Of a stretch of DNA of 55,031 nt, positions 17,169 to 34,384 are shown piece by piece. The notes below the pieces were generated by a model. It saw only the letters and a list, made by a program, of their open reading frames with translations, ran no database searches and was not told the DNA's origin. Location: the NCBI GenBank assembly GCA_017616915.1, contig JAFZXF010000110.1, positions 1-55,031 of the forward strand, given 5' to 3'. Position 1 is the stretch's first letter, and each line of letters starts with the position of its first letter. Source of the stretch: Bacteroidaceae bacterium. Its GTDB lineage: Bacteria > Bacteroidota > Bacteroidia > Bacteroidales > Bacteroidaceae. Made by a program: the position numbers and the translations under genes.

Positions 17169-19727
17169 ATGAAAAAAACGCTGACATTTTTCTTCGCATT
17201 GCTGCTTGCCGCCCCGATGATGCAAGCTGCACAAAAGGTAAATAAGAAGGCGCAATTAAGCGCAGCTCGTCAGGTGATTGACCGTTTCCTGCAGCAATCT
17301 TCAACAGCCAATGGTCAACGGTCAACGGTCAACGTCCAGATGTCAATGGACAAGGTGCAGGGCTGCGACCAATACTGCGTGGGTGTGGATCGCAAAGGCA
17401 CGCTACAGATTGACGCATCCAGTCCGGTAGCAGCGTGCAGGGCTTTCTATGAATACCTCCGCCTGCATGGCTACGGCATCAATTCATGGACCGGCAACCG
17501 CTTGCAGATACCTGCCACCTTTGAGCCGGAGGCCGACCGCCATGTGGTGTCGCCCTACAAACACCATAATTATTATAATGTGGTAACCTACGGCTACACC
17601 CTCCCCTATTGGAGCTGGCCGCAGTGGGAAAAGGAGCTCGATTGGATGGCCCTGCACGGCGTGGATATGCCGCTCGCCCTCGTAGCTAACGAGGCTATCA
17701 GTGCCCGGGTGTGGAAGAAACTCGGCCTCACCGATGAGGAGATACAGAATTATTTCGTTGGCCCCGCCCACTTGCCATGGATGCGTATGGGCAACATCAC
17801 CAAGATTGACTCGCCCATGCCCTTGAGCTGGCACAAAGACCAGATAGCCCTGCAACACAAGATACTGCAGCGTATGCGCGAACTGGGCATGAAGCCCATC
17901 TGCCCGGGCTTTGCAGGTTTCCTACCGCCGGAGATTAAGCGCATATATCCCGAGGCCAACCTGGTGCAGACCGACTGGGACGCTTTCCACGGTTGGATGC
18001 TGATGGCTGACGACCCCCTCTTCCCCAAAATCGGCAAGATGTTTATCGAGGAATGGGAAAAGGAATTCGGCAAGTGCGAGTTCTACATCGCCGACTCGTT
18101 TAATGAGATGTCCATCCCCTTCCCGCCCAAGGGCACCCAGGAGCGCTACGACAAGCTCGCCCATTACGGACGCACAGTCTTTGAGGGCATCCACGCAGCC
18201 AACCCCGATGCAGTATGGGTGATGCAGGGCTGGATGCTCGGCTCCACTCGCGGCATCTGGGATTATGAAACCCTCTCCGCGCTGTTGCGCGATGTGCCCG
18301 ACGACAAGATGCTCATCCTCGACATGGCCGCCGACTATAACTACATCTTCTGGCACAACGGCGCCAACTGGGAGTTCTACAAAGGCTTCGACGGCAAGCA
18401 GTGGATATTCTCCACCATCCCCAATATGGGCGGCAAAACTCCGCTCACCGGCATACTGGAGTTCTACGCCAATGGTGCACGCATCGACGCACTCAACTCG
18501 GCTTACAGAGACAACCTCGTGGGCTACGGCACCGAGCCTGAGGGCACCGAGAACAATGAAGTGGTCTATGAACTTATCAGCGATGCCGGCTGGACTGCCG
18601 ACAGCATCAACCTCAAGGACTGGCTGCAGAACTACACCCTCTGCCGCTACGGCAAGACCTGCGACCGCCTCAACGACTACTGGCAGGAGATTACCCAGTC
18701 GGCCTACGGCGAGTTCATCGACTGGCCCCACTACCTCTGGCAGCTCTGTCCGGGCGTCTATGAACGCGGCACCGCTCCCATTGACTCGCTCTTCCTCCAT
18801 GCCCTTGAGCAGTTTGCCGACGCGGCACCCCAGATGAAGGACAGCCCGCTCTATGCCACCGACCTCACCGAGATGGTGGCTCACTATGCCTCTGCCAAGA
18901 TGGAGATACTCATGCAGTCGGTCAAGAACTGCGTGATGTGGGATGACATGGGCAAGACCGACTCGCTCATTGCAGTCCTCAACGATATCGCCATCCGCAC
19001 CGACCAGGTGCTCAGCACCCACCCAATCCTGGATATGCAGCGCTGGATTGACTTCGCCAAGGCCCATGCCACCAATGCCGAAGAGTCCGCCTACTACGAG
19101 CGCAACGCCAAGCGTATCGTCACCGTTTGGGGACCGCCCGTCAACGACTACTCCGCCCGCATCTGGAGCGGACTGATTCGCGACTTCTACCTACCGCGCC
19201 TCAACAACTACCTGCAAAGCCTCAAGAGCGGAGACACCTTCGACGTCGGCAAGTGGGAGGTCAACTGGGTGGAGAACAGCAAGGGGCTCAGCCCCGTCAG
19301 CAAGCCCGCCGACAAGGTGCAGGCAGCCCTCGACCTCATGGCCATCGCCAAGACCGTGCCCTACAAAGCCTTTACCGCCGCCAACGCCAAAACGTTCGAC
19401 CACTGGACGCCCGACATGATGAGCCTCGACTGGACCACAGTGGAGTGGCCCGTTCCCGCCGCCGAGCTGGAAGGACTCAAAGGGTTTAGCTTCCACTGGA
19501 CTCACGGCCCCGAGAAACTGGAGATCAGTAAGGTGGAGCTCCTGCAGGACGGCAAGGTCGTGGCTGTCAACGAACACCAGGGTGAGACCGGCCTCATGAA
19601 CATTCACAACGACTATCCGCTCACGAAAGGTTCAGTGCTCAATCCTCAGAAGGATGCCGTGCTCCGTGCCACCGTTCGCACCACCGGCCACTGTGTTTCC
19701 TACGGCGACGTGATAATAGTAAGATAA
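17169..19727 (+). CDS. Alpha-N-acetylglucosaminidase (GH89, NAGLU-like) with extra C-terminal domain
   Basis: 852 aa with a signal peptide. It has NAGLU-type N-, TIM-barrel and C-terminal regions, for example YYNVVTYGYTLPYWSWPQWEKELDWMALHGVDMPLA and FIEEWEKEFG..EFYIADSFNEM. Confidence 0.85.
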   Translation: MKKTLTFFFALLLAAPMMQAAQKVNKKAQLSAARQVIDRFLQQSSTANGQRSTVNVQMSMDKVQGCDQYCVGVDRKGTLQIDASSPVAACRAFYEYLRLHGYGINSWTGNRLQIPATFEPEADRHVVSPYKHHNYYNVVTYGYTLPYWSWPQWEKELDWMALHGVDMPLALVANEAISARVWKKLGLTDEEIQNYFVGPAHLPWMRMGNITKIDSPMPLSWHKDQIALQHKILQRMRELGMKPICPGFAGFLPPEIKRIYPEANLVQTDWDAFHGWMLMADDPLFPKIGKMFIEEWEKEFGKCEFYIADSFNEMSIPFPPKGTQERYDKLAHYGRTVFEGIHAANPDAVWVMQGWMLGSTRGIWDYETLSALLRDVPDDKMLILDMAADYNYIFWHNGANWEFYKGFDGKQWIFSTIPNMGGKTPLTGILEFYANGARIDALNSAYRDNLVGYGTEPEGTENNEVVYELISDAGWTADSINLKDWLQNYTLCRYGKTCDRLNDYWQEITQSAYGEFIDWPHYLWQLCPGVYERGTAPIDSLFLHALEQFADAAPQMKDSPLYATDLTEMVAHYASAKMEILMQSVKNCVMWDDMGKTDSLIAVLNDIAIRTDQVLSTHPILDMQRWIDFAKAHATNAEESAYYERNAKRIVTVWGPPVNDYSARIWSGLIRDFYLPRLNNYLQSLKSGDTFDVGKWEVNWVENSKGLSPVSKPADKVQAALDLMAIAKTVPYKAFTAANAKTFDHWTPDMMSLDWTTVEWPVPAAELEGLKGFSFHWTHGPEKLEISKVELLQDGKVVAVNEHQGETGLMNIHNDYPLTKGSVLNPQKDAVLRATVRTTGHCVSYGDVIIVR
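17307..17348. repeat. Period-7 repeat, 6 units (GCCAATG GTCAACG x3 TCCAGAT GTCAATG) in frame in the GH89 gene
   Basis: Read directly. It encodes ANGQRSTVNVQMSM just after the signal peptide. Confidence 0.9.
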
Positions 19728-19810: not shown

Positions 19811-19906
19811 TACCTCGTATCGATTGTGAATTCATACCTCGTATAAGGTATGAGCTTTTACCTCGTACAAGCTACCACCTTTTACCTCATACAAGTTGAG
19901 ACCCTT
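19811..19906. repeat. Phased array: TACCTC(G/A)TA(T/C) core repeated 4 times at exactly 24-bp spacing
   Basis: The cores start at 19811, 19835, 19859 and 19883. The 14-bp intervening segments differ from one another. Confidence 0.85.
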
Positions 19907-19954
19907 TCCGGAGGGTGAAATTTTAATCGACCATTATGAAAAAGACCAAAAATT

Positions 19955-20086
19955 AATCGGTTGCGACCAACTTACGAATCGGTAACAACCAACTGGGCAA
20001 TCGGTACGTACCAATATGAGAATCGGTACGTACCAACTGGACAATTGGTACGTACCGACATAATTACCGAATAGTTACCGAATTAT
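19955..20086. repeat. 22-bp tandem array (about 6 units) with AATCGGT(ACGTACC) cores; three units carry the perfect palindrome GGTACGTACC
   Basis: Units start at 19955, 19977, 19999, 20021, 20043 and 20065. The last unit overlaps the stop codon (20075-77) of the CotH-like gene. Confidence 0.85.
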
Positions 20087-23000
20087 TACCTTCTCCTTGT
20101 TGATGATATAAACGCCAGGAGGCAGGGTGATGGTCTCGCGGCCACCCTTGAGGCTGTAGAGTCGATAAACTCTGCCGTCGGCACCATAGACGGGAACTAC
20201 GGCAGCCTCGCTGCTGCTCAGCGTTACACTGTTGCCCTGCTGCCCAACGATGGACACGGCACTGTTGATGCCCGTAGGCTCCTCGAGGCAGAATTCTACC
20301 GTGCGGCTGCGACTACGCTCGTCCTCACCGAGGGCGGTAGAGAAGAGAACGTTGCTGAGAGAGGTGCTAAGCAATTGAGAATTATTTTTTCCTAACTCAA
20401 GGGTCAGCTCGCTCTTGCCGCGAGGCAACTTATGCTTGCCGCTAGCATAGATTGAAACTCTGTAGCATTGAGCATTGTCAAGCTCGGTAATGGAGACGTC
20501 GAAGTCGGGAAGGGAGCGGCTCAGGTCAAGATTGTCGAGCGTCATGCCATCGGGGATACGCAGGTCGAACTGCAGGCCGCTGTAATCGCCGTCATCCACG
20601 GCAATAACGAGCGGGATGGCCACACCCTCGTCGGTGTAGGCCACACAGCCCGAAGAAATGGCTGCATCGGCCTCAGGCAAGCCGTAGTAGCGACCGCTGA
20701 AGACGATTGGTGGTGTGGTGGTAGTGATGAGGTTGCGCACATTAATCACATCGGCCACGGTGATTATACCATTCTTGTCGGTGTCGGCCTGATAGAACTC
20801 AAAGTCCTCGTTGGGCAGGTTGAGCATATAGTTGAGCACGCACACCACATCGGAGGTAGTGACGCTACCGTCACCGTTGACATCGCCTATCAGCGGCCTG
20901 CCGCCATTGGGCTCAAGATATCCCTTGGAGGCATAGCCGAGGGTGTTGCTCATATAATTGAAGATGAAGTTTGCACGGTCTTTGAGCCACGTCTTGGCGC
21001 TGCGGGTGATGCTGGCATAAGTCTGAGCATTGCCACGACCCCAGCGCGAATTATCGTGAGAAAAGGAGGGGGCTGCAAACTGATAATAGTCGTCGCAGAA
21101 ATCTACAAGCTCGTCAAGGCTGCCGTCGTTGATGAAGTCGTACCAGAGGTTGTAGTATTTCTTGTCGAGGGCGGTAATGTTATAGCGCATGTCCTTCGAC
21201 CAAGCAAAACCTACCTCGGAGCCTGTACGCGACCAGAAATCGAGCGTAGCATGGGTGGTGAAATAGTCGCGGTTGGAGGAGAAACCGTAAGCCCAGTCAA
21301 AGTCCCACACCGGACCAAACACGTAAGGCGAACTGCTGTCCTTGATGTTGGCGTTATATACGAAGGTGCTCTTGGGGTGCATCAGCTCCACATTAGCGGT
21401 ATAGTCGGTGACGAACAGGAAACGAGCCAGATAGTCAAGGTCATAGTAAAACTCCAGGTACTCATCCTTGTTCTTCAGGGCCTCGGTGGAGCGATTGAAG
21501 CTCTCCTGAATCATGCTCTGGGTCAGACTGGTGGTGCCCTCGCTGAAGTCAGGCTCCTTGATATTCACCGGCAGGTTGTAGCTCTGGTCGCGGAACTTAT
21601 AGGTCTCGTCATAGTAGCTGTCGAGCTCCAGCAACACCGCATTGGTCTCATCGTCAAGGTCCACACTGTTGTTGGAGAGGCCTATCTTCTCCGTGAGATT
21701 GTAGGAACCGCGGTATTCGCCGTTGACATACAGCTCCACGGGTATCTCGTGATTGAAGCCCGCCGTCTCCACCAGTTGCGCCATCTTCATGGCTACGGCA
21801 TTACTGGTCATTGAATGGCTCTGGGCATTGGCAATGAGATTCCAGTGCTTGCCCTTCTTGAGACCGAGCACCTTGGTGGCGGTTTCAAACTTAAAATGGT
21901 AAGGGGCCTTGCCGCTGGATGTCCACGAACTGTTGCCGCGACCCTTAATCTGCATGTCTGTTTCTGGCAGGTCGGGGAACACTCCCGCACCGTCGATGCG
22001 TATCTTGCCGTCCCAATAGTAATGCTTCGAGGTGATACTGGTGCCGTCGTTTGTAGTGACATATACTGACGGAACCTTGTATGAGGAATTGGAATGGTCG
22101 GTGGCAAAATCCACACGCACCGTATAATCCTGTCCGTAAGGCCTTACAAGGTATTCACCGTTGAACCGGCGACGCAGGATGGTCTGACCACAACGGGCCA
22201 CGGTATAGACCACATCCTTATCAAAGCGAACACGGGTCACCTTGCTATGCTGCAAAGAATCGCCAATCCAGGCCTGCACATCCTCGTCGAGCTTAAACGA
22301 AGGACGCAGCGTCTTGCCGATGCCCACCACCTGCAGAGTGATGAGGGTATCTTCCTCAAACACACCGATGGCATCCTCGATGATATGGTGGTTGAACTTG
22401 TTGTTGAACTTAAAGCTATTGAACTCCGGCAGCGGTGGCGATACCTCGCTAAGGGAGTCCACCTCGTAGTCCTTGAATGTATAAGTGGGGCCACTGTCCT
22501 TGGTGGTGATTGATAATTGACCATCGAACATTGACCATGGGCCATTGAGCGTTGACCATTCACCATTGGGCATTAAGCATTGAACTTTATCTATATAAGC
22601 ACGGGGGAAAGCCTCTACCCTACCGTCGGCACGATAGACAAAGAGAATCTTGCCAGTGACCGGCTCCAGCTGACTGCCGGTGGTGTCAGGGTCAATAGGG
22701 TCAGGGTCGCTACTGGTGTGAAACTGCTTGCCCTTTTCGTCGTAGAGGTTGAATGTTTCGTTCAGTCCGTAAGGGATGCCGCTCTTGCTGTAAGCTCCAA
22801 GGGCATAAGTGCCGTTACGAACGTTAAAGAAATAACTCCCGTTGGCAACACTCTGGAAATAGAACAGCTCGGAGCCGTCGTCTGCAGTGGTATTGCAGAT
22901 ATACCACAGCGATGCCTCAGCCTCTATGCTGGAAGACAAATGCACATAGCGCAGTATCTCCGGCGAGTTGGTGTACTGGTCATCAAGGGTGATATACTGG

Positions 23001-23284
23001 CTGGTGGAGGCATTCTTAAGAGCATACTTGCCCGTGCCGGTGCCCTGCTCAATAAAATACCACAAGCAGTCGGCAGCATCAGGATCCTGGGTGGTTACGC
23101 ATAGCGGCGAGTTTACACCATGATTGACACCCAGTGCCGCACTACTGCCCTCCAGGAAGAGGGACTCGATGCGATACTTGGTCTTGCTATCAATTCCGGT
23201 AATGATATCTGCCCCGCAATAAGAGACAAAAAACGAGAACTGAAAGAAAAGGACTGTCCAGAAGGCCGCTACTCTTGCTTTCAT
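20075..23284 (-). CDS. Secreted multidomain protein B: lectin-like N-domain, CotH-kinase-like core, dockerin, cohesin-like module, T9SS C-terminal sorting domain
   Basis: 1069 aa with a signal peptide. The evidence by region:
- CotH-like core: IKGRGNSSWTSSGKAPYHFKFE..GLKKGKHWNLIANAQSHSMTSN..PVELYVNGEYRGSYNLTEKIG..FGPVWDFDWAYG.
- Dockerin: DVNGDGSVTTSD..DTDKNGIITVAD.
- Cohesin-like: GVAIPLVIAVDDGDYSGLQFDLRIPDGMTL.
- T9SS CTD: VPVYGADGRVYRLYSLKGGRETITLPPGVYIINKEKVIIR. Confidence 0.75.
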   Translation of the reverse strand: MKARVAAFWTVLFFQFSFFVSYCGADIITGIDSKTKYRIESLFLEGSSAALGVNHGVNSPLCVTTQDPDAADCLWYFIEQGTGTGKYALKNASTSQYITLDDQYTNSPEILRYVHLSSSIEAEASLWYICNTTADDGSELFYFQSVANGSYFFNVRNGTYALGAYSKSGIPYGLNETFNLYDEKGKQFHTSSDPDPIDPDTTGSQLEPVTGKILFVYRADGRVEAFPRAYIDKVQCLMPNGEWSTLNGPWSMFDGQLSITTKDSGPTYTFKDYEVDSLSEVSPPLPEFNSFKFNNKFNHHIIEDAIGVFEEDTLITLQVVGIGKTLRPSFKLDEDVQAWIGDSLQHSKVTRVRFDKDVVYTVARCGQTILRRRFNGEYLVRPYGQDYTVRVDFATDHSNSSYKVPSVYVTTNDGTSITSKHYYWDGKIRIDGAGVFPDLPETDMQIKGRGNSSWTSSGKAPYHFKFETATKVLGLKKGKHWNLIANAQSHSMTSNAVAMKMAQLVETAGFNHEIPVELYVNGEYRGSYNLTEKIGLSNNSVDLDDETNAVLLELDSYYDETYKFRDQSYNLPVNIKEPDFSEGTTSLTQSMIQESFNRSTEALKNKDEYLEFYYDLDYLARFLFVTDYTANVELMHPKSTFVYNANIKDSSSPYVFGPVWDFDWAYGFSSNRDYFTTHATLDFWSRTGSEVGFAWSKDMRYNITALDKKYYNLWYDFINDGSLDELVDFCDDYYQFAAPSFSHDNSRWGRGNAQTYASITRSAKTWLKDRANFIFNYMSNTLGYASKGYLEPNGGRPLIGDVNGDGSVTTSDVVCVLNYMLNLPNEDFEFYQADTDKNGIITVADVINVRNLITTTTPPIVFSGRYYGLPEADAAISSGCVAYTDEGVAIPLVIAVDDGDYSGLQFDLRIPDGMTLDNLDLSRSLPDFDVSITELDNAQCYRVSIYASGKHKLPRGKSELTLELGKNNSQLLSTSLSNVLFSTALGEDERSRSRTVEFCLEEPTGINSAVSIVGQQGNSVTLSSSEAAVVPVYGADGRVYRLYSLKGGRETITLPPGVYIINKEKVIIR
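22508..22584. repeat. Period-7 repeat, about 11 degenerate units (forward CATTGAC-type), in frame in protein B
   Basis: Read directly. The sense strand is of the GTCAATG type and encodes LMPNGEWSTLNGPWSMFDGQLSI. Confidence 0.85.
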
Positions 23285-23287
23285 TCC

Positions 23288-24340
23288 TTACTCTCCTTGG
23301 ATGATGAAGTTGTATATGGTAATAACATCGACAGAGTTGACATCGCCATCGCCATTGGTATCAGCGTATTCGCGGATGATTCCGCTCTCTTCGCCAATAA
23401 TGATGTAGTTATACACGCTCACCACATCTACCGAGTTGACGCTACCGTCACCATTGACGTCGCACACATAGCGATACTTGGCGGTTAAGGTCACATCACG
23501 AGCCGGCATCGACCATTGATCGTTGACCATTGACCATTGACCATCGACCAGCTCGCCCCAGCCCACAAACTTCTGACCGTCGAGGTCGCCAGGAACGAAT
23601 GCAGGCAGAGGATTGTTATATGCAACCTGCTCGGCATGTACCACCATATCGTCCACAACGAACTGGAGCGTATAGGAGTTGACACACCATCCAGCATAAA
23701 GGTCGAGGTTATGAGAAGGCATAACCGAGGGAACATCGCCCCACCCGCAGAAGGAATAGCCTTCACGCTCGGCAGGCTCATCAATCATAGGAATGGGTAT
23801 TCCGGCCATGAGGTTGGTAGTGTAATATACCGTATCTGCATTCCAATAGGTCAGCTTATACGATGAACCCTGAGGCTCCAACGTAAATGAGGCTACAGCA
23901 TTGTTCAGCACTGTCTCGGCACCAGCATTGGTGGTAAGACGCACATTCTTTGCCACCACGTCATATGTGCCTTCCGGAAATGTGGAAGTAGCATTAAACT
24001 TGATAGAGAACAGGTTACCACTGTTGCCCGTGATATTATTCTTCTTTGCCGAGGCGTAACCCACGATACGCGGCAGGCCATTGGTAGCGGTGCCGACCTT
24101 TATAGTCAGATTGCGAGTACGCAAAGAAGAGGTAAGCGACGCAGCATCCAGCGTCACCCCACTGGGCAATACGAAATCCATCTGGAAGCCACTATAAATG
24201 GTGGAAGGGTTATCCAGCTCTACCGTCAGAGTCCACTGACGACCGTCACCTTTCACAATGCCCATCTTTATGACATCGTCAGCCGCCCATACCACGAAGG
24301 GCATGATTGCCAGCACAATTAATGAGAATATGCGTTTCAT
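23288..24340 (-). CDS. Secreted cohesin-like / Listeria-Bacteroides-repeat / dockerin protein
   Basis: 350 aa with a signal peptide (VVWA/ADD). The evidence by region:
- Cohesin-like: WTLTVELDNPSTIYSGFQMDFVLPSGVTLD...GNLFSIKFNATSTFPEGTYDV.
- Two Flg_new-type repeats (EGYSFCGWGD, GQKFVGWGE).
- C-terminal dockerin: DVNGDGSVNSVD...DTNGDGDVNSVD.
- Its start overlaps the upstream gene's stop as ATGA. Confidence 0.7.
   Translation of the reverse strand: MKRIFSLIVLAIMPFVVWAADDVIKMGIVKGDGRQWTLTVELDNPSTIYSGFQMDFVLPSGVTLDAASLTSSLRTRNLTIKVGTATNGLPRIVGYASAKKNNITGNSGNLFSIKFNATSTFPEGTYDVVAKNVRLTTNAGAETVLNNAVASFTLEPQGSSYKLTYWNADTVYYTTNLMAGIPIPMIDEPAEREGYSFCGWGDVPSVMPSHNLDLYAGWCVNSYTLQFVVDDMVVHAEQVAYNNPLPAFVPGDLDGQKFVGWGELVDGQWSMVNDQWSMPARDVTLTAKYRYVCDVNGDGSVNSVDVVSVYNYIIIGEESGIIREYADTNGDGDVNSVDVITIYNFIIQGE
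23508..23549. repeat. Period-7 repeat, 6 units (CATCGAC CATTGAT CGTTGAC CATTGAC CATTGAC CATCGAC)
   Basis: Read directly. It is in frame and encodes VDGQWSMVNDQWSM. Confidence 0.9.
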
Positions 24341-27300
24341 CTTATTATGATTTTCTGCTTGTTGATGATATATACGCCAGGAGGCAGGGTGATAGTCTCG
24401 CGGCCACCCTTCAAGCCGTACAGTCGATAAACTCTGCCGTCAGCACCATAGACGGGAACTACGGCAGCCTCCGTGCTGCTCAGCGTTACACTGTTGCCCT
24501 GCTGCCCAACAATAGCCACAGCACTGTTGAGGCCCGTCAGCTCTTCAGAGGTAAACTCTGCTGTGCGGCTTTGGCTACGCTCGTCCTCACCGAGGGCGGT
24601 AGAGAAGAGAACGTTGGACAGAGAAGCTGACAGTAATTGAGCATTATCTATTGACCTTTGACCATTATATTTTCCCAATTCAAGGGTCAGCTCACTCTTG
24701 CCAAAAGGCAACTTATGCTTAGCACTGGAATAGATGGAAACCCTGTAACATTGACCATTGACCATTGACCGTTGGCCATTATCAAGCTCGGCCACAGTGA
24801 TATCGAAATCGGGAATAGCATGGCTGATGTCAAGATTGTCTATCGTCATACCCTCGGGAATGCGAAGGTCAAACTGGAGACCGCTGTAATCGCCATCAGC
24901 AACGGAAATAGTAAGCGGAATAGTCACTCCTTCCTCAGTATAGCTCACCGATCCGGTAGCAATGGTAGCATTAGCTTCGGGCAAGCCATAGAATGTACCG
25001 CTCTTGATTCCACTCGTTTCCACAATATTACGCACTCCAATAATATCGGCAACGGTAATCATATTATTCTTGTCGGTGTCGGCCTGCTCGTACTTGAAAT
25101 CTTCATTGGGTAGATTAAGCATATAGTTGAGAACAGCCACCAGGTCAGAAGTTGTCACACTACCGTCACCGTTTGCATCACCCATCAGCACTCCGGTGTC
25201 ATAATCATTGAGGTAACCCATTGCATTGTAACCTAACGTGTTACCTAGATAGTCGTAAATATAGTTAGCTCTCTTGCGTAACCAATCCTTAGACTTCTCC
25301 GTTATAGTGGCATAGGTGGTTGCATCGCCGTGACGCCAGCGGGTATTATCGTGAGTATAGGAGGGCGCAGCAAACTGATAATAGTCGTCGCAGAAATCTA
25401 TCAAGTCATCCAGACAGCCGGTCGTCATGAAGCGATGCCAAGTCTGATAGTATATCTTGTCGAAGTTGGTGCCGCAATAGCGTAAGTTATGTCCCCAAGC
25501 ACTGGCCTCCATAGATGACCTGCTCCAAAAGTCGTAAGCTGGTGAGCCGTTGAAATAACCGCCGCTGTACTGGTAGCCATAGCCCCAGTCGAAGTCCCAC
25601 ACCGGACCAAACACAAAGGTGGAGCTGCTGTCGAGCAAGTTAGGATTGTACCAGAAAGTGCTCTTGGGATGGAAGAGTTCGTAGTTTTCGCTAAATTCAT
25701 CCACCAGCAGGAATCGAGCCAGGTAGTCCAGGTCAACCACATACTGCATATCTTCGCCCCTATAGAGAGTGTCCCAAACGCGGTTCACACTTTCCTCTAT
25801 CATGCTCTGAGTTAGCTTAGTAGTACCTTCGCTGAAGTCAGGCTCTTTAATATTAATAGGAAGATTGAAACTGGAAGACCGGAACTTATAGGTCTCGTCA
25901 TAGTAGCTGTCGAGCTCAAGGAGAGTGGCATAGCTCTCATCTTCAAGATCCACACTGTTGTTGGAGAGGCCTATCTTCTCCGTGAGGTTGTAGGAACCGC
26001 GGTATTCGCCGTTGATATACAGCTCCACGGGTATCTCGTGGTTGAAGCCGGCAGCCTCCACCAATTGCGCCATCTTCATGGCGATAGCGTTGGTAGTCAT
26101 AGAACGGTTAATAGCGTTGGCAATCAGGTTCCAGTGCTTACCCTTCTTGAGGCCAAGTACCTTGATGGAATTCTCAAACTTGAAATGATAAGGAGCCTTG
26201 CCTGTGGATGTCCACGAACTGTTGCCGCGCCCCTTTATCTGCATGTCAGTCTCAGGCAGGTCAGGGAACACTCCTGCACCGTCGATGCTTATCTTGCCGT
26301 CCCAATAATAACTCTTAGAGTTAATGCTGGTACCGTCATTTGTGGTGATATAGACAGTAGGCACCTGACACTCTCCCGTAGAATGATCGGTGGCAAAATC
26401 CACACGCACCGTCACCTCTCGACCATAGGGCCGGGTGACATATTGTCCATCTCCAGTGCGACGCAGGATGGTCTGGCCACAACGCGCCACGGTATAGACC
26501 ACATCCTTATCAAAGCGAACACGGGTCACCTTGCTATGCTGCAAAGAATCGCCAATCCAGGCCTGCACGTCATCGTCGAGTTTAAACGAAGGACGCAGAG
26601 TCTTGCCGATGCCCACCACTTGCAAAGTTATGAGACTATCTTCATCAAACACACCGATGGCATCGCCTATGATGTGAGGGTTGAACTTGTTATTGAACTT
26701 AAAGCTACTGAACTCCGGCAGCTCGGGGGCCACATAAGATAGCGAATCGACCTCATAGGCTGCATAGGAGATGGTTTGTAACTTGTGGAAGGAAGCCTTG
26801 GGCATGAGAGTAAACGTCAGTCCTTCAGATGGCAATGCACTTCCTGGCAGGGGTAGCGAAGGAACATCTCCCTTTATATACTCCTGCGGTATAGCCTCTA
26901 CACGCCCATCAGCTCTATAAACATAAACCACAGGACCACTAATTGGCTCCAGCTCAGAAGGATCTACACTTGAAGTGTCAACAGGAATGGTATCCACAGG
27001 AGCTGTGCTACCAGGCGTTACAAGTCCCTTAGAGGCAAGATAGTCACGATGACGGGCATCCTTGGACAGGAATGTAAACGTGGAGCCACCGTCAACGGTG
27101 AACCAGCAAATTCCCCCACTACTATAATCGTTCCAAAAAGTGCGGCCTGTAATAATGTGAATATTATTCTCGCTGTTTTCACTACATGTCTTCACCCCTA
27201 TGGCATAACCTTCATAGTCTCCGCGAGAGCTCCAAGTAATCGACCAAGTGTGGTCATTGGCCTTAGGTGAACCCGAAACCACAGTAACATCGCTATCGGT

Positions 27301-28140
27301 GGTGTTCATTGTGTCCGTAAACTTACCACTCACGTAGTTGCCGCCTTCCACCATAATCTGCACACCGTCTTCTGCTTCTACGAAGTAAAAACGAGTCTTC
27401 GGGAGCTCACTGTCCTGACTCAGGCTACCCCATCCCGCATAAGTCAGCGGCTCAACCCAGTTCATGGAGCGCGAATTGCGGATATAGTAATACACTGGGC
27501 TATTGGGGTTGGTAGTCATCACCACCGGCACATCCAATCCATAGGATGTCCAATAAAGACCTTGCTCATCCTGACCGCATACATCATTATAATCTTTCCC
27601 GGGGTCATAGTACGAACCGTCCTCTTTCAGAATATAGAATATCTCATTACTTGCAGCCTCACTGGAACCGTGAGCATAAGTACCGAGAGCTCCCGAACCA
27701 CTACGGATATTGAAATAGTAATTATCCATGGCCACATTGACGAAGTAGTAGATATCCTCGTCATACACCCCGATAGTCCAAAGCGAGGAATCGCCCTTGA
27801 GTTCAGTGGTCAGGTTTAGGTAGCGGCGTATAGGATTATCAGAGCGCACATCATCCCAAGTCATATACTCTCCAGTCTTGGCGTTGCGCAATGCATATTG
27901 ACCCGCCTTATATTCCTGCACATACCAGAAGCAGTCGTCATCCGTAGCATTAACATCGGTAACACACAACGGAGAGTTCACTCCGTGAGTACTACCCGGA
28001 GCTACCGAACTACCTTCGGTGCGAACTGCCTGGATGCGAAACTTCGTCAACGGATTGAATGAAAAATTATCTGCTGACGCACCTAAGCACACTAGCACAC
28101 ATATTATCTGTAACAAAAAAGTCTTCATTCTATGTTGCAT
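24337..28140 (-). CDS. Secreted multidomain protein A (paralog of B, with an extra N-terminal module of about 250 aa): lectin-like domains, CotH-kinase-like core, dockerin, cohesin-like module, T9SS C-terminal domain
   Basis: The likely start is MQHRMKTFLLQIICVLVCLGASA (ATG at 28140, alternative at 28128). I rejected the track start at 28296. It has the same CotH, dockerin (DANGDGSVTTSD..DTDKNNMITVAD), cohesin-like (GVTIPLTISVADGDYSGLQFDLRIPEGMTI) and CTD (VPVYGADGRVYRLYGLKGGRETITLPPGVYIINKQKIIIR) modules as protein B. Confidence 0.75.
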   Translation of the reverse strand: MQHRMKTFLLQIICVLVCLGASADNFSFNPLTKFRIQAVRTEGSSVAPGSTHGVNSPLCVTDVNATDDDCFWYVQEYKAGQYALRNAKTGEYMTWDDVRSDNPIRRYLNLTTELKGDSSLWTIGVYDEDIYYFVNVAMDNYYFNIRSGSGALGTYAHGSSEAASNEIFYILKEDGSYYDPGKDYNDVCGQDEQGLYWTSYGLDVPVVMTTNPNSPVYYYIRNSRSMNWVEPLTYAGWGSLSQDSELPKTRFYFVEAEDGVQIMVEGGNYVSGKFTDTMNTTDSDVTVVSGSPKANDHTWSITWSSRGDYEGYAIGVKTCSENSENNIHIITGRTFWNDYSSGGICWFTVDGGSTFTFLSKDARHRDYLASKGLVTPGSTAPVDTIPVDTSSVDPSELEPISGPVVYVYRADGRVEAIPQEYIKGDVPSLPLPGSALPSEGLTFTLMPKASFHKLQTISYAAYEVDSLSYVAPELPEFSSFKFNNKFNPHIIGDAIGVFDEDSLITLQVVGIGKTLRPSFKLDDDVQAWIGDSLQHSKVTRVRFDKDVVYTVARCGQTILRRTGDGQYVTRPYGREVTVRVDFATDHSTGECQVPTVYITTNDGTSINSKSYYWDGKISIDGAGVFPDLPETDMQIKGRGNSSWTSTGKAPYHFKFENSIKVLGLKKGKHWNLIANAINRSMTTNAIAMKMAQLVEAAGFNHEIPVELYINGEYRGSYNLTEKIGLSNNSVDLEDESYATLLELDSYYDETYKFRSSSFNLPINIKEPDFSEGTTKLTQSMIEESVNRVWDTLYRGEDMQYVVDLDYLARFLLVDEFSENYELFHPKSTFWYNPNLLDSSSTFVFGPVWDFDWGYGYQYSGGYFNGSPAYDFWSRSSMEASAWGHNLRYCGTNFDKIYYQTWHRFMTTGCLDDLIDFCDDYYQFAAPSYTHDNTRWRHGDATTYATITEKSKDWLRKRANYIYDYLGNTLGYNAMGYLNDYDTGVLMGDANGDGSVTTSDLVAVLNYMLNLPNEDFKYEQADTDKNNMITVADIIGVRNIVETSGIKSGTFYGLPEANATIATGSVSYTEEGVTIPLTISVADGDYSGLQFDLRIPEGMTIDNLDISHAIPDFDITVAELDNGQRSMVNGQCYRVSIYSSAKHKLPFGKSELTLELGKYNGQRSIDNAQLLSASLSNVLFSTALGEDERSQSRTAEFTSEELTGLNSAVAIVGQQGNSVTLSSTEAAVVPVYGADGRVYRLYGLKGGRETITLPPGVYIINKQKIIIR
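24635..24669. repeat. Period-7 repeat, 5 units, in frame in protein A
   Basis: Encodes KYNGQRSIDNAQLL, where paralog B has KNNSQLL. The difference is 7 aa (21 nt). Confidence 0.8.
24749..24783. repeat. Period-7 repeat, 5 units (CATTGAC x3 perfect, CGTTGGC, CATTATC), in frame in protein A
   Basis: Encodes DNGQRSMVNGQCY. Paralog B has only 2 units at 20466-20479, encoding DNAQCY. The difference is exactly 21 nt. Confidence 0.9.
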
Positions 28141-28158
28141 TGAAATTAGGGTTGTCGG

Positions 28159-28166
28159 CAAAATTA
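28159..28166 (-). promoter_or_regulatory. Candidate -7 box TAATTTTG directly upstream of protein A
   Basis: The forward sequence CAAAATTA is the reverse complement of TAnnTTTG. It lies 19 nt upstream of the ATG at 28140. Confidence 0.4.
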
Positions 28167-28257
28167 CGTATATTTTCTGATATACAATGTAAAATAGGGT
28201 AAAAAAGAGCATTTTACCTAATGTAATGCACCGAAACGAGTAAGATTTGAATACAAT

Positions 28258-28290
28258 CGGTGCCGTGCAGCAACATTCTGCACGGCACCG
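28258..28290 (-). terminator. Strong hairpin between the lipoprotein genes and protein A (terminator, attenuator or processing site)
   Basis: Perfect 13-bp stem: CGGTGCCGTGCAG pairs with CTGCACGGCACCG, with a 7-nt loop. GCACCGAAAC direct repeats flank it at 28228-37 and 28285-94. Confidence 0.55.
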
Positions 28291-28322
28291 AAACACAGTG
28301 TGTAGTTATTTAGCGTCTACGA

Positions 28323-28904
28323 TTAGTCGTTCTCTGCGAGACCGCTGTAACGTACACCGCTCACTCTATACTTGGCATAGCCGTCATCCGGATACCAAGG
28401 ATCACCTTCATAGCTTACATAGAATACTATACTGTCAGCTACGGAACCGTTGTTCTGGTGACCGGCACCTTTCAGGATCTTACCCTCGGTGATAGTAATC
28501 GGATAAAGGTCACATTCATATCCGTTGACTTCTGCCAAATTCTCGGCATTATTGCAGGAGAAGGTGAGACTCTTCGTGTCGATATTAACCTTGCTTTTGA
28601 AAGCATAGCTAGGATAACCACCATAACCATAGAAGTCAGCAATGTCGAATGCGCTGAGGTCATCCACGAACATCTCGGTTGACTTGTTGTCTGCGGTATT
28701 ATAGGTAAGAAGTAGTACACGTCCTACGCCAAAATAATCCTCGCCGCCGTCAATGGGATTACCGTCATCATCAACGGCATCAATCTGCACATACCACTGA
28801 CCGGCCATCGAAACCGTAGCAGTCTTTTCTATGTCATCCTTCTCGCACGAGATAAGAAACGCGGGCAGAAGGAGCATTGCTGCGAAATATAATACTTTCT
28901 TCAT
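28323..28904 (-). CDS. PUL-associated surface lipoprotein, function unknown
   Basis: 193 aa with a lipobox (AFLISC) followed by Asp/Glu residues typical of surface-exported Bacteroidetes lipoproteins (CEKDD). It sits in the SusE/F-like position downstream of susD. Confidence 0.6.
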   Translation of the reverse strand: MKKVLYFAAMLLLPAFLISCEKDDIEKTATVSMAGQWYVQIDAVDDDGNPIDGGEDYFGVGRVLLLTYNTADNKSTEMFVDDLSAFDIADFYGYGGYPSYAFKSKVNIDTKSLTFSCNNAENLAEVNGYECDLYPITITEGKILKGAGHQNNGSVADSIVFYVSYEGDPWYPDDGYAKYRVSGVRYSGLAEND

Positions 28905-28910
28905 AGTAAT

Positions 28911-29621
28911 TTACTCTTTAACTTGTTTTACCCATGTCTGAACAAAATCCATGTTGGCATACTTAGTGGTCAGTGTAAACGTACCTGTTGCGGCATCGAA
29001 AGTTCCCTCGAAGCCTTCATCGGGACCATCATCCCAGCCCGGCACATAGCCATCCTCAAGAGTAACAGTGCCATCTGCAACAGATATTGTAGCACCCATT
29101 GCATAATCACTGCCGTAGCCTGCACGGTAGCAATACCAACCACCTAGCATGTCATCAACATCGTAGGTGCCATCCCCATTGCTGAGGACAACTACAGGAT
29201 ATTCATTACCATACTTAACCTCAGCACCCTGGCGGATTCTATAACTGTCCGAGCTATTCCAGTAGAGTCCCTCAACAGGGTCGTTAGGATCAGCCACGAT
29301 TACAGTACGAGTAGTCGAAGCGCCGAAGCCATCCTCATTCTTTGCGGTTGTGTAAGTCAAGGTATATAAACCCGGCTTGCTTGTATCTACGTTACCGCTT
29401 ATGGTAACCTGGTCGGATACGTCCTCGCCACCCATAATGGATGTATAACCGGGATCCTCCCATGTAGAGCCCTTATCAGCCACATAATACGATCCTCCGG
29501 TCAACTCAATGGTCGGGTAGTAAGTGATTCGCGACTTTCCTGCCGAATCGTCATCGCCGCAGCTAACCATAACGAAAGCAGCTGCCACGAAAAGCATTGT
29601 ATATAAAATATTCTTTTTCAT
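28911..29621 (-). CDS. PUL-associated surface lipoprotein with N-terminal Ig-like (DUF5011-type) domain
   Basis: 236 aa with lipobox VMVSCGDDD. The segment PTIELTGGSYYVADKGSTWEDPGYT...GEDVSDQVTISGNVDTSKPGLYTLTYTTAKNEDGFGASTTRTVIV matches the bacterial Ig-like pattern. Confidence 0.6.
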   Translation of the reverse strand: MKKNILYTMLFVAAAFVMVSCGDDDSAGKSRITYYPTIELTGGSYYVADKGSTWEDPGYTSIMGGEDVSDQVTISGNVDTSKPGLYTLTYTTAKNEDGFGASTTRTVIVADPNDPVEGLYWNSSDSYRIRQGAEVKYGNEYPVVVLSNGDGTYDVDDMLGGWYCYRAGYGSDYAMGATISVADGTVTLEDGYVPGWDDGPDEGFEGTFDAATGTFTLTTKYANMDFVQTWVKQVKE

Positions 29622-29648
29622 AATTTATTCAATATGAAATTAAAGTTT

Positions 29649-31163
29649 TTACTTTCCCCAGAAGATGGGAACGGTGTAGCCGGGGAACTCGGGTGAGTTT
29701 CCGTTGCGTGCAGATGAGCTCTCGGGATAAATCCAGCGCTCCAATATCTGGTTGGGGCCAACCTTGTCATCCACCTGGATGGGAGTGTAGAGCGTACCGG
29801 GCTTGTAGAGCTGGGGCTTGTAGGAAGAGTCATCCTTGAGGTTGTACATCTGGCTGCCCTGAACAGTGCCGAAGGCAGGATAATTCAGACGGCGAGCCTC
29901 ACACCATGCCTCAAAGTTGTTGGTACCAGCGAGGGCAATCCACTTGGAGATACCGATGCACTCCTGCCACTTTGCCTGAGTATAAGGGAACTGGGCAATA
30001 ACATCCTCAGCGCCATCAACACCAGCGGAAGCGCAAGATGCCTCGATAGCTGCATTGTAGTGAGCCTCAGCCTCAGTAGCATTGTTCTGACGAGCATAGT
30101 ACTCTGCGATGAAGAATTCAATCTCGGAAACGGTGATCAGATAAACTGGCATATCATACGATGCCACAGGGCGGCACCAGTAGGTTGACTTGTAGGCATT
30201 CGATGTAGAGAAGTTGGTACCAGAGATACCACCGGTATATGCACCTGTGGCATTCTTCTCAAAGAAAGCACCCAGACGCGGATCCTCATAGATTACGTCA
30301 TCGTTAGCATCCTTCTGAAGCATGGTGCCGATAATAGCCAGATTGGCTACTACGTTCTCCTGATCAGAACCCCAAGCAGAAGTGAACTCTTCTGCATAGA
30401 ACGGACTGAATGATCCGGTCTCATCCTTCCAGCAGCCAGCATAAGCCACGTCCTCGGTGGGGAAGTTGCCCTCCTCGATAAGTGCCTTAACCTTAGCCGG
30501 TGCATCGTCAGCAACATCATACTCACGCATAAGCAGTTTAAGCTTCAATGCGTTTGCAAACTGAATCCACTTAGCAGCATTCTCATCCGGGAACAGGAAG
30601 TTGGTTGCTACGCGGTCACCAGCCTGAGCTTTCTCCAAAGCCTCATCCAGCTCCTGCAGTACACCGGCATAGATATCCTTACCTTCGTCATACTTGGGTG
30701 AGGTTTTGCCTGAGAATGCCTCACTATAGGGCACTTCACCATAGCAGTCAACAAGCACCTGATAGATAAAGGCGCGCAGTGTCTTAGCAGCCAGATAGCT
30801 ACCCCATTCTTCGTTCTTCTCTGCGAGATCGCAGATAGTAGTGAGATTCTTCAAAGCACGGCCGTTAAGCTGAGTATAAGTAGAGCTTGAACGGGTAGCA
30901 GACATCGTAAACTGCGAAAAATCAAGAAAGTTCGACGTACCGAAAGCCTGAGTATAGTGTTGTGCATAGTATCCACCCGTTATACGCAAGAAGTCGCCAT
31001 AGCTACCTGCCAGGTTCATCTCTGCTGCAGGCATCAAAATGTCGGGGGTCATATTCTCCTCGCTGGGAGAGTTGGGATCCTGGTTGATATCCAGATAGCT
31101 GTCGCACGAAGCGGTCAGCAGCAGTCCCAAAGCAATTGTAGTTAAAAATGCTATTTTTTTCAT
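29649..31163 (-). CDS. SusD/RagB family nutrient-binding outer-membrane lipoprotein
   Basis: 504 aa with lipobox LLTASCDSYLDINQDPNSP (the canonical SusD N-terminus) and a TPR-like helical body. It starts 20 nt after the susC stop. Confidence 0.9.
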   Translation of the reverse strand: MKKIAFLTTIALGLLLTASCDSYLDINQDPNSPSEENMTPDILMPAAEMNLAGSYGDFLRITGGYYAQHYTQAFGTSNFLDFSQFTMSATRSSSTYTQLNGRALKNLTTICDLAEKNEEWGSYLAAKTLRAFIYQVLVDCYGEVPYSEAFSGKTSPKYDEGKDIYAGVLQELDEALEKAQAGDRVATNFLFPDENAAKWIQFANALKLKLLMREYDVADDAPAKVKALIEEGNFPTEDVAYAGCWKDETGSFSPFYAEEFTSAWGSDQENVVANLAIIGTMLQKDANDDVIYEDPRLGAFFEKNATGAYTGGISGTNFSTSNAYKSTYWCRPVASYDMPVYLITVSEIEFFIAEYYARQNNATEAEAHYNAAIEASCASAGVDGAEDVIAQFPYTQAKWQECIGISKWIALAGTNNFEAWCEARRLNYPAFGTVQGSQMYNLKDDSSYKPQLYKPGTLYTPIQVDDKVGPNQILERWIYPESSSARNGNSPEFPGYTVPIFWGK

Positions 31164-31183
31164 AATATTATCCTCCTTTTTAT

Positions 31184-34100: not shown

Positions 34101-34384
34101 TGAGCAACGCGCAGGAAAATCTGCATTGAGGGCTTGGCAGCAATCTGCTGAGTCTCCTAGCCCACTGCGCTAACAAACAGGTGAGTCCTGCCCTTGGGCA
34201 CGTTCAAAGAGAACTTTCCGTCTGCCTTTGTCTCGGCAATTACGTTGGTACCTGTAACTACCACGATGACATTCTGCAGAGGCACACTGTCTTCCGACAT
34301 CACGATGCCGTTGACCTTCATCTGTGCCAACGCTCCTTGCCCTATTGCGAACAGGAGCGCCAAGAGAAATAGGATTTTTTTCAT
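31184..34384 (-). pseudogene. SusC/RagA family TonB-dependent receptor interrupted by one in-frame TAG (codon 76)
   Basis: Track ORFs 34157..34384 (signal peptide plus CarboxypepD_reg-like domain, ending ...HLFVSAVG*) and 31184..34126 (plug plus barrel) are in the same frame. The junction reads GTG GGC TAG GAG ACT CAG. The TAG sits where the conserved Tyr of the (S/I)xGY-x-TQ motif is expected. Confidence 0.8.

Follow-up and report, generated by a model that had tools for sequence, protein, structure and literature searches.

A conserved three-gene locus of ruminant and gut Bacteroidales that places dockerins and cohesin-like modules on CotH proteins with T9SS-type tails

Introduction

Cohesin and dockerin modules are known to work outside cellulosomes in Clostridium perfringens, whose non-cellulosomal complexes include that of the GH84C (NagJ) cohesin and the mu-toxin dockerin (Protein Data Bank [PDB] entries 2jh2, 2o4e, 2vo8, and 2w1n), and Ruminococcus flavefaciens has the monovalent adaptors ScaC and ScaH, each with one cohesin, a spacer, and one dockerin. 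Here we describe three adjacent genes, called A, S, and B, in a 55,031-nucleotide (nt) stretch of DNA (the window; contig JAFZXF010000110.1 of GenBank assembly GCA_017616915.1, positions 1 to 55,031 of the forward strand) from a Bacteroidaceae bacterium. Each of the three encoded proteins combines one dockerin with one cohesin-like module, and A and B also contain a CotH domain and a C-terminal tail resembling the sorting domain of the type IX secretion system (T9SS). The C. perfringens complexes and the ScaC and ScaH adaptors are the closest functional analogues of this trio.

In C. perfringens, as in the trio, the effectors themselves carry the modules and there is no dedicated scaffoldin, and the C. 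perfringens cohesins are the top structural matches of the module in B. The systems differ in that the C. perfringens proteins are secreted toxins and enzymes of a Gram-positive organism, with glycosidase cargo and neither T9SS nor CotH, and in that they have no dockerin-cohesin dyad beside an anchor and no adaptor gene between paralogs. S resembles ScaC and ScaH in consisting of one cohesin (N-terminal in S), a spacer, and one dockerin; the spacer of ScaH has been described as variable in length (PMC12484212). Unlike those adaptors, S comes from a diderm without sortase or S-layer homology (SLH) anchoring, has InlB B-repeats as its spacer and no identified export route, and has as candidate partners CotH proteins that each carry both modules. 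Its layout fits that of an adaptor scaffoldin, and its dockerin is of a different class from the dockerins of A and B.

CotH is an atypical kinase of Bacillus spore coats, with catalytic aspartates D228 and D251 in Bacillus subtilis (PMC7821199), and is a recurrent and unexplained dockerin-bearing component of cellulosomes (PMC12484212). A reading of the window made from the sequence alone (the original prediction) had taken the three-gene set, with both modules fused to CotH-like domains and T9SS anchors, for a distinct assembly system. The pairing of CotH with a dockerin has precedents in the cellulosomes of clostridia, ruminococci, and fungi (PMC12484212). Like A and B, these clostridial, ruminococcal, and anaerobic-fungal proteins fuse CotH to a dockerin and come from fibre-associated gut or rumen organisms, and the role of CotH is unclear there too (PMC12484212). 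In contrast to them, A and B have their own cohesin, a T9SS-type tail, and a lectin-like N-terminus, belong to the Bacteroidales, and have no cellulases in their locus.

Dockerins of Bacteroidota have been recorded before. Bensoussan et al. (2016) found dockerins of Prevotella and Bacteroides in rumen metagenomes, including peptidase C10-dockerin proteins, with Bacteroidetes contributing 1.7% of the cohesins versus 8.8% of the dockerins (PMC6487960), and later genome surveys that applied Pfam thresholds recorded Bacteroidota dockerins without cohesins (PMC10266427; see also PMC9763041). Peptidase C10 cargo is also found here with a dockerin-cohesin dyad (loci L017, L020, and L023), and, in contrast to the scarcity in the rumen survey, the cohesins here adjoin the dockerins but score under the Pfam threshold. 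In the literature searched, with much subscription literature outside our reach, neither a cohesin-dockerin system linked to T9SS nor a dockerin-cohesin dyad was described.

Organization of the A, S, and B genes

A (24337..28140, 1,267 amino acids [aa]), S (23288..24340, 350 aa), and B (20075..23284, 1,069 aa) are three open reading frames (ORFs) that follow one another in the same orientation on the minus strand of the window. The ORF of A covers 24337..28296, and translation probably begins at 28140 or 28128; the start at 28140 (MQHRMKTF...) was judged reasonable, and versions of A in public records have 1263, 1267, or 1291 aa. Public names cover the trio, with A called "CotH kinase family protein" and S "InlB B-repeat-containing protein." The stop codon of A and the start codon of S overlap in an ATGA (4 nt, 24337-24340), and S and B are separated by 3 nt (GGA). 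The three genes are translationally juxtaposed and tightly coupled and probably form an operon. The three ORFs and the motifs quoted in the original prediction were all present as it had described them, and the coordinates it gave for the ATGA overlap and the 3-nt gap were correct.

A consists, in order, of a signal peptide, a ricin-like lectin domain, an extra region of about 200 to 220 aa, a middle region of about 250 aa, a CotH domain, a dockerin, a cohesin-like module, and a T9SS-type C-terminal sorting domain (CTD). B is a paralog of A (69% identity over 897 aligned positions) without the extra region. In S, the order of the modules is reversed, with a signal peptide followed by the cohesin, InlB B-repeats (Flg_new), and the dockerin. 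The sequence of S and an alignment of 22 homologs bear out the reverse order that had been proposed for it; the signal peptide is cleavable, and because there is no Cys near the N-terminus and the dockerin forms the end of the protein, S has neither a CTD nor a lipobox. Close homologs of S were found only in Bacteroidales metagenome-assembled genomes (MAGs).

The spacer of S (23471..23788, minus strand) matches Pfam Flg_new (E 2.3e-7) and the NCBIfam internalin repeats and includes an in-frame (ATGGTCA)n array, detected by Tandem Repeats Finder with period 7 at 23507-23550. The S protein encoded here contains two repeats of the InlB type together with a filler, LVDGQWSMVNDQWSM, that derives from heptamers. 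Many S orthologs have a third repeat and some a fourth, with total lengths of 339 to 480 aa, and the length of the spacer between cohesin and dockerin therefore varies by species. One S ortholog (L012, 6791-7996) stops after a single dockerin segment; this half-dockerin may have arisen by natural truncation, or it may be an artefact of assembly or of a frameshift.

Dockerins of two classes

To judge from their sequences, A, S, and B each carry one genuine two-loop dockerin. All three reach the gathering threshold of Pfam Dockerin_1 (PF00404; 22.9 bits): the S dockerin (23291..23464, minus strand; aa 293-350) scores 48.8 bits (E 8.3e-13) and has two near-identical halves, the B dockerin (20717..20887, minus strand; aa 800-856) scores 28.3 bits, and the A dockerin (25012..25182, minus strand; aa 987-1043) lies exactly at the cut-off with 22.9 bits. 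Each contains two duplicated Ca-loop segments, which read DANGDGSVTTSD and DTDKNNMITVAD in A, DVNGDGSVNSVD and DTNGDGDVNSVD in S, and DVNGDGSVTTSD and DTDKNGIITVAD in B. Alignments with dockerins of known structure keep both Ca loops in register for S (1daq and 2mte, E 3.8e-5) and include both loops for B (2ccl_B, from Xyn10B of Clostridium thermocellum, E 1.3e-4).

Conservation of the Ca-coordinating Asp and Asn positions had been proposed as a check on this assignment, and these positions proved to be invariant or nearly so in the orthologous dockerins. At Ca positions 1, 3, 5, and 12, the 23 dockerins of A/B orthologs have D (23), N (23), D (23), and D (22) in loop 1 and D (23), D (23), N (23), and D (23) in loop 2. 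The 11 dockerins of S orthologs have D (11), N (9) or D (2), D (11), and D (11) in loop 1 and D (10) or N (1), N (9) or D (2), D (11), and D (11) in loop 2.

The two classes differ in their helices. The A/B class is asymmetric, with VVCV(L/F)NYML in helix 1 and (L/V)I.VRNL in helix 3, whereas the S class is symmetric, with halves that read VVA(I/V)Y.YI and V..(I/V)YN.I. Among the dockerins of cellulosomes, symmetric ones are associated with dual binding and asymmetric ones with a single mode of binding (PMC12484212).

Cohesin-like modules

The cohesin-like modules of A (24535..24975, minus strand; aa ~1056-1202, placed by alignment with B and a profile match) and B (20273..20704, minus strand; aa ~861-1004) follow the dockerins, with a gap of about 17 aa in B, and that of S (23873..24286, minus strand; aa 19-156) precedes the spacer. 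The pattern GV.IPL..DGDYSGLQFDLRIP.GMT is present in A and B. Against the gathering threshold of Pfam Cohesin (PF00963; 24.1 bits), the S module gave a partial, subthreshold match (17.4 bits, E 0.0054), and the modules of A and B gave none. A PDB search with a single A/B sequence comprising the cohesin-like module and CTD returned only a chance match to an antibody. A homolog search with the C-terminal 211 aa of B recovered only 7 fragments, and sequences of the S family were therefore added to the module alignment.

The two module classes, A/B and S, are homologs of each other (33% identity, E 3e-7); they can be aligned along their whole length and have in common the motifs G.Q.D...P, R...Y, and N. 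A profile of 18 modules had as its best PDB sequence match the R. flavefaciens cohesin 5n5p_A, a weak match (E 0.021), and more of its members matched Pfam Cohesin (4 of 18, best E 5e-4) than any other family. The AlphaFold2 model of the S module had a predicted local distance difference test score (pLDDT) of 94.9 and a predicted template modeling score (pTM) of 0.88, and in a Foldseek search of the PDB its matches at ranks 1 to 30 were all cohesins (E 3e-6 to 1e-4; TM 0.52 to 0.69), with 5n5p at ranks three and four. For the B module (pLDDT 77.8, pTM 0.72), ranks 1 to 8 were cohesins (E 6e-6 to 1.8e-4; TM ~0.6), with C. perfringens 2jh2, 2vo8, and 2w1n, Archaeoglobus fulgidus 2xdh (rank 4), and CohA2 of Clostridium acetobutylicum (6kgc and 6kgd) among the top folds. 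The parent protein of 2xdh, in which a dockerin accompanies the cohesin within the same chain, differs from A and B in being archaeal, in having no CTD anchor and no adaptor gene, and in its cargo.

In related proteins, the profile built from the S, A, and B modules falls on recognized cohesins. In protein P0036, its match at residues 1168-1295 coincides with a Pfam Cohesin match at 1165-1294 (whole-protein E 1.9e-32); in an ORF of locus L024, the corresponding ranges are 504-616 and 502-608; and in P0039, the profile match also coincides with an above-threshold Pfam Cohesin match. On the strength of these models and profiles, we concluded that both module classes are divergent members of the cohesin superfamily. 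One dockerin and one cohesin-like module per protein, as the original prediction had it, thus agree with Dockerin_1 scores at or above the cut-off and with the predicted cohesin folds, and where an unrelated Ig or FN3 fold had been raised as the alternative, the best PDB matches for the S and B modules were cohesins.

Q, D, R, and N are invariant in both cohesin classes and G and Y nearly so, and all six conserved residues are found in strands 3, 6, and 8 of the predicted structures. Canonical cohesins bind dockerins via the 8-3-6-5 sheet, to which strands 3, 6, and 8 belong. The placement of the conserved residues on this sheet is an indirect point in favour of dockerin binding.

The modules could alternatively be leftovers, with the dockerins acting as mere Ca stabilizers, the cohesins as Ig-like spacers before the CTD, and the genes lying side by side through duplication. 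The failure of the A and B modules to match Pfam Cohesin would fit this explanation, as would the Ig-like domain that T9SS cargos commonly have before the CTD and the presence of YcnI, pilins, and CBM2 among the Foldseek matches of the B module, with slightly weaker E-values than the cohesins. We nevertheless regard it as very improbable, given that cohesins are both the best and the most numerous fold matches, that the modules are homologous to others that pass Pfam Cohesin, that the polar residues shared without exception by the two classes are placed on strands 3, 6, and 8, and that dockerins and cohesins co-occur systematically across thousands of proteins.

Relative to that of B, the cohesin-like module of A has two 7-aa repeat-derived loop insertions. 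In-frame period-7 arrays occur within the coding sequences of B (22509-22583), S (23507-23550), and A (24749-24780 and 24652-24665), and another is present in the NAGLU gene (17311-17331, plus strand). Their (ATGGTCA)n-like units encode GQWSMVN-type peptides, with 21 matches versus 0.92 expected by chance. A strain whose B homolog is 99% identical differs solely by NSQFSIL, encoded by (AATTCTC)x3, in the same loop, and relatives have other heptamer-derived inserts there (NYQLSTI and SQESRVK); only in-frame variants were seen. These arrays could be hot spots of slipped-strand mispairing or could serve phase variation.

CotH and lectin-like domains of A and B

The CotH domains of A (25258..26238, minus strand; aa 635-961; 68.2 bits, E 1.2e-18) and B (20915..21949, minus strand; aa 446-790; 66.2 bits, E 4.7e-18) lie well above the cut-off of Pfam CotH (PF08757; 23.8 bits) and cover the whole profile (1-322 of 322 in A). 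The W-D-[FY]-D-W motif is kept in the A/B orthologs shown, as WDFDW in all but one. Neither phmmer nor a profile search matched any solved CotH structure, the profile being contaminated by the discoidin domain of a third CotH protein.

This third CotH protein is encoded elsewhere in the window (49362-52085, plus strand; 907 aa) and combines CotH (E 5e-41) with an F5/8 type C (discoidin) domain on one side and, on the other, a significant match to RicinB_lectin_2 and a T9SS CTD-like tail; it has neither a dockerin nor a cohesin. In A and B, RicinB_lectin_2 remains below the Pfam cut-off, and the significant ricin-type lectin of the third protein strengthens the case for a lectin domain in both and points to glycan-binding surface proteins. 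This genome therefore pairs CotH with lectin domains repeatedly.

None of the three proteins has a Pfam match to any glycoside hydrolase, polysaccharide lyase, carbohydrate esterase, or carbohydrate-binding module family, and no SLH or sortase-type modules were found in A, S, or B, which come from a diderm member of the Bacteroidales with T9SS-like tails. There is one cohesin per protein in the locus, whereas multi-cohesin T9SS proteins occur elsewhere in the family. With no multi-cohesin scaffoldin, no carbohydrate-active enzymes, and no SLH or sortase anchor, the locus is not a cellulosome, and the label "cellulosome-style" in the original prediction had to be given up, since the locus holds neither a glycoside hydrolase nor such a scaffoldin.

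C-terminal tails and export

The tails of A (24340..24534, minus strand; aa ~1203-1267) and B (20078..20272, minus strand; aa 1005-1069) resemble T9SS type A sorting domains, with TIGR04183 scores of 11.7 bits and 16.6 bits (E 0.0058), respectively, versus a curated threshold of 23 bits. The T9SS CTD of these proteins is a putative assignment, with TIGR04183 as the sole family matched and scores that stay below that threshold; Pfam Por_Secre_tail (PF18962) gave no match in A or B at E <= 1. Among 17 orthologous A/B tails, 9 matched TIGR04183 and no other family (best E 6.8e-4), and a profile of A/B tails matched solely the extreme C-termini of related proteins. Some A/B orthologs have a short tail of the form YDLQGRK...LPKGIYI..G.K, and the third CotH protein of the window ends in a similar T9SS-like tail.

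S and the other partner proteins that end in a dockerin could either stay periplasmic or leave the cell bound to T9SS cargo. T9SS moves folded cargo. One alternative is accordingly that S is a periplasmic partner of the A/B modules, either a chaperone against premature polymerization or a "piggyback" passenger of the T9SS. S and its dockerin-ending relatives (L017, L020, and L049) do have a Sec signal peptide and neither a CTD nor a lipobox, partners without a dockerin end in CTD-like tails, the coupling of the genes would deliver S along with A and B, and the capacity of T9SS for folded cargo would accommodate a passenger. No precedent for passenger export via T9SS was found in the literature searched, which counts against this role, and we consider it quite unlikely.

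Conservation of the trio and the wider family

The A-S-B trio recurs in about 12 other species-level genomes of ruminant and gut Bacteroidales. When a single genome was screened for each GTDB species, the trio, whole or as far as the contig permits, was present in L007 to L016 and L018. Gene order and architecture are identical in L001 and L007 to L016, with L011 and L018 partial: a protein with ricin-like, (extra), middle, CotH, dockerin, cohesin, and CTD regions is followed by a protein that runs from cohesin to dockerin and then by one with the CotH architecture again. An S relative of only 43% identity is flanked in the same order by CotH proteins of 1,240 and 1,082 aa, and on one of its contigs (L002) the next gene is a convergent NAGLU gene, as in the window. 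The source records of the trio genomes describe mostly MAGs from rumen or other ruminant guts and one human-gut MAG (UMGS2057). Recurrence of this architecture in about 12 species-level genomes is more than chance, and the trio is conserved as a unit.

Many further loci encode a large protein that ends in dockerin-cohesin, often with a CTD, and is followed by a gene for a protein with a signal peptide and a cohesin first; the 4-nt start/stop overlap between the two genes is frequent, in unrelated loci too. The cargo in these proteins includes peptidase C10 (streptopain-like, with an I69 inhibitor domain; L017 587-3391, L020 466-3561, and L023 5850-9959) and BspA-type leucine-rich repeats (LRRs; L021, L022 7923-9980, L023, and L049 7381-9987), which end in dockerin-cohesin(-CTD) and precede a cohesin-first gene, and a PKD protein carries a dockerin-cohesin cassette (L086). 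The original prediction had seen in the trio a distinct system, but the trio does not stand alone: dockerin-cohesin(-CTD) proteins with a cohesin-first gene after them are widespread in Bacteroidales, on other cargos.

The partner proteins combine a cohesin with InlB B-repeats and end in a dockerin in the S family, L017, L020, and L049. Others (L022, L025, L026, L033, L034, and L039, among others) end in a short Bacteroidales CTD-like tail, although an NCBIfam scan of ten partner proteins gave no match to TIGR04183. The notion that partners generally have no CTD was dropped, because many of the tails resemble short Bacteroidales CTDs; only the dockerin-ending partners lack one. In one locus (L084, 7358-10882), the whole design is united in a single chain, where CotH and a degenerate dockerin are followed by a cohesin, two InlB B-repeats, and a CTD, and the S-type cohesin-InlB unit can therefore share a chain with CotH cargo.

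Against 1.84 billion representative proteins, the module profile matched 6,456 at E <= 0.001 and 2,985 at E <= 1e-10, and the top matches are multi-module proteins. Two of them are scaffoldin-like and have a significant Por_Secre_tail: P0035 (3,008 aa), in which 14 modules alternate with CarboxypepD_reg, and P0036 (2,099 aa; L087 4113-10412), with 8 modules and 12 InlB B-repeats. Within this large family of modules, which public annotation leaves unnamed, the trio forms a single branch. Profile hidden Markov models (HMMs) of the A/B-type and S-type dockerins and cohesins yielded no wiring rule, as the classes do not separate outside the CotH clade.

In 148 best representatives (with S and its homolog P0017 left out), the dockerin-to-cohesin tandem occurred 52 times, with a gap of 13 to 51 aa in 51 of the 52 cases. 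This compact arrangement bears on the question of what the A/B dockerin binds. It might dock on the cohesin of its own chain, or reciprocally in a homodimer, which would make a Ca-stabilized rigid stalk before the T9SS anchor and leave S to bind other proteins or none encoded here. The dyad is indeed a conserved unit with a short linker, it is found on many unrelated cargos, also where the neighbouring gene has no dockerin, and the parent of 2xdh likewise has a dockerin in the same chain as its cohesin. Such self-binding would, however, leave the strict co-conservation of S between A and B and its start/stop coupling unaccounted for; if A and B were self-satisfied, there would be little reason for S to have a cohesin and a dockerin as well, each of a distinct class, and cohesin-first genes stand next to dockerin-cohesin proteins in many loci. 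We consider self-binding unlikely.

Flanking genes and repeats

The intergenic region upstream of A (28141..28322, minus strand), read directly from the sequence, contains a G+C-rich hairpin after a Lipid_bd gene and a Bacteroides -7-like TAATTTTG, which lies about 20 nt before the ATG at 28140, within the longer ORF of A. The consensus of the Bacteroides -7 element is TAnnTTTG. The hairpin and the -7-like motif suggest that A-S-B may have its own promoter.

Directly upstream of A is a four-gene set (28323-34126, minus strand) that encodes a TonB-dependent receptor (SusC-like), a SusD-like_2 protein, a BT_2262-like surface protein, and a Lipid_bd lipoprotein, the same composition as that of the BT2261-2264 complex of Bacteroides thetaiotaomicron. 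A role for these genes as part of the trio was rejected, because the hairpin and promoter-like motif intervene and because the genes are absent upstream of the trio in L001.

The intergenic region after B is dense in tandem repeats (19835-20090). It includes 22- and 44-nt repeat units with the palindrome GGTACGTACC at 19966-20063, an 11-nt array that spans the stop codon of B (20053-20090), and a 24-nt array (19835-19895).

Proposed assembly

We propose that A, S, and B form an operon whose products make up a non-cellulosomal cohesin-dockerin assembly at the cell surface of a ruminant or gut member of the Bacteroidales. A and B would cross the inner membrane via Sec, fold in the periplasm, be exported by T9SS, and become anchored after cleavage of the tail. 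The dockerin and cohesin beside the anchor would then make Ca-dependent contacts, and through these the three proteins would assemble as hetero-oligomers close to the outer membrane. S would serve as a small bivalent adaptor, with its InlB repeats as the spacer, and, having no sorting signal, would join A and B by binding, before or after export.

Two dockerin classes and two cohesin classes are what a cross-wired adaptor system would need, which is not proof of one. The most likely wiring would run across the classes: the cohesin of S would receive a dockerin of A or B, and the dockerin of S would insert into a cohesin of A or B, so that S might bridge the two CotH proteins or clamp one of them.

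Several points weigh against this proposal. The cohesin fold is in itself no guarantee of dockerin binding, the modules of A and B have no Pfam Cohesin match, and the model of the B module is of moderate quality (pLDDT 77.8). The adjacent dockerin and cohesin of A and B might bind within one chain and leave none free for S, and the class-specific HMMs gave no consistent wiring rule in the wider family. As for the surface location, the tails of A and B fall below the curated T9SS CTD threshold of TIGR04183, no T9SS genes were seen within the 55-kb window, and S, with its Sec signal peptide and neither a CTD nor a lipobox, has no known route across the outer membrane. Weighing these points with the evidence above, we consider assembly of A, S, and B through cohesin-dockerin contacts to be somewhat favoured. 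The original prediction is partly supported: its modules, their order, and the gene coupling hold, and the trio is conserved as a unit, but the content is not cellulosome-style and the system does not stand alone.

Implications

The trio is a real feature, a putative form of non-cellulosomal cohesin-dockerin assembly that we have not found described in the literature searched, with its parts on non-enzymatic, predicted surface proteins. Bacteroidota dockerins have repeatedly been reported with hardly any cohesins (PMC6487960, PMC10266427, and PMC9763041), and the subthreshold neighbours recognized here make the question of their partners testable. CotH is now found in a cohesin-dockerin context in a third rumen lineage, beside the Firmicutes and the fungi, and S, which has no CTD, raises the concrete question of how proteins without sorting signals exit the periplasm.

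A broader reading, which we put forward as doubtful, is that ruminant and gut Bacteroidales possess a large T9SS-tied cohesin-dockerin system, in which the dyad lies before the sorting domain of CotH, peptidase C10, BspA-LRR, and PKD cargos, the cohesin-first partner is encoded by the next gene, and S, docked to A or B in the periplasm, is exported only with them through T9SS. If true, this would explain the "orphan" dockerins of Bacteroidota and make passenger export a further capability of T9SS. Should the modules bind, Bacteroidales would build outer-membrane assemblies from the parts of Firmicutes cellulosomes, with T9SS as a third kind of anchor in place of sortase or SLH, which would interest those working on surface display in gut Bacteroidales.

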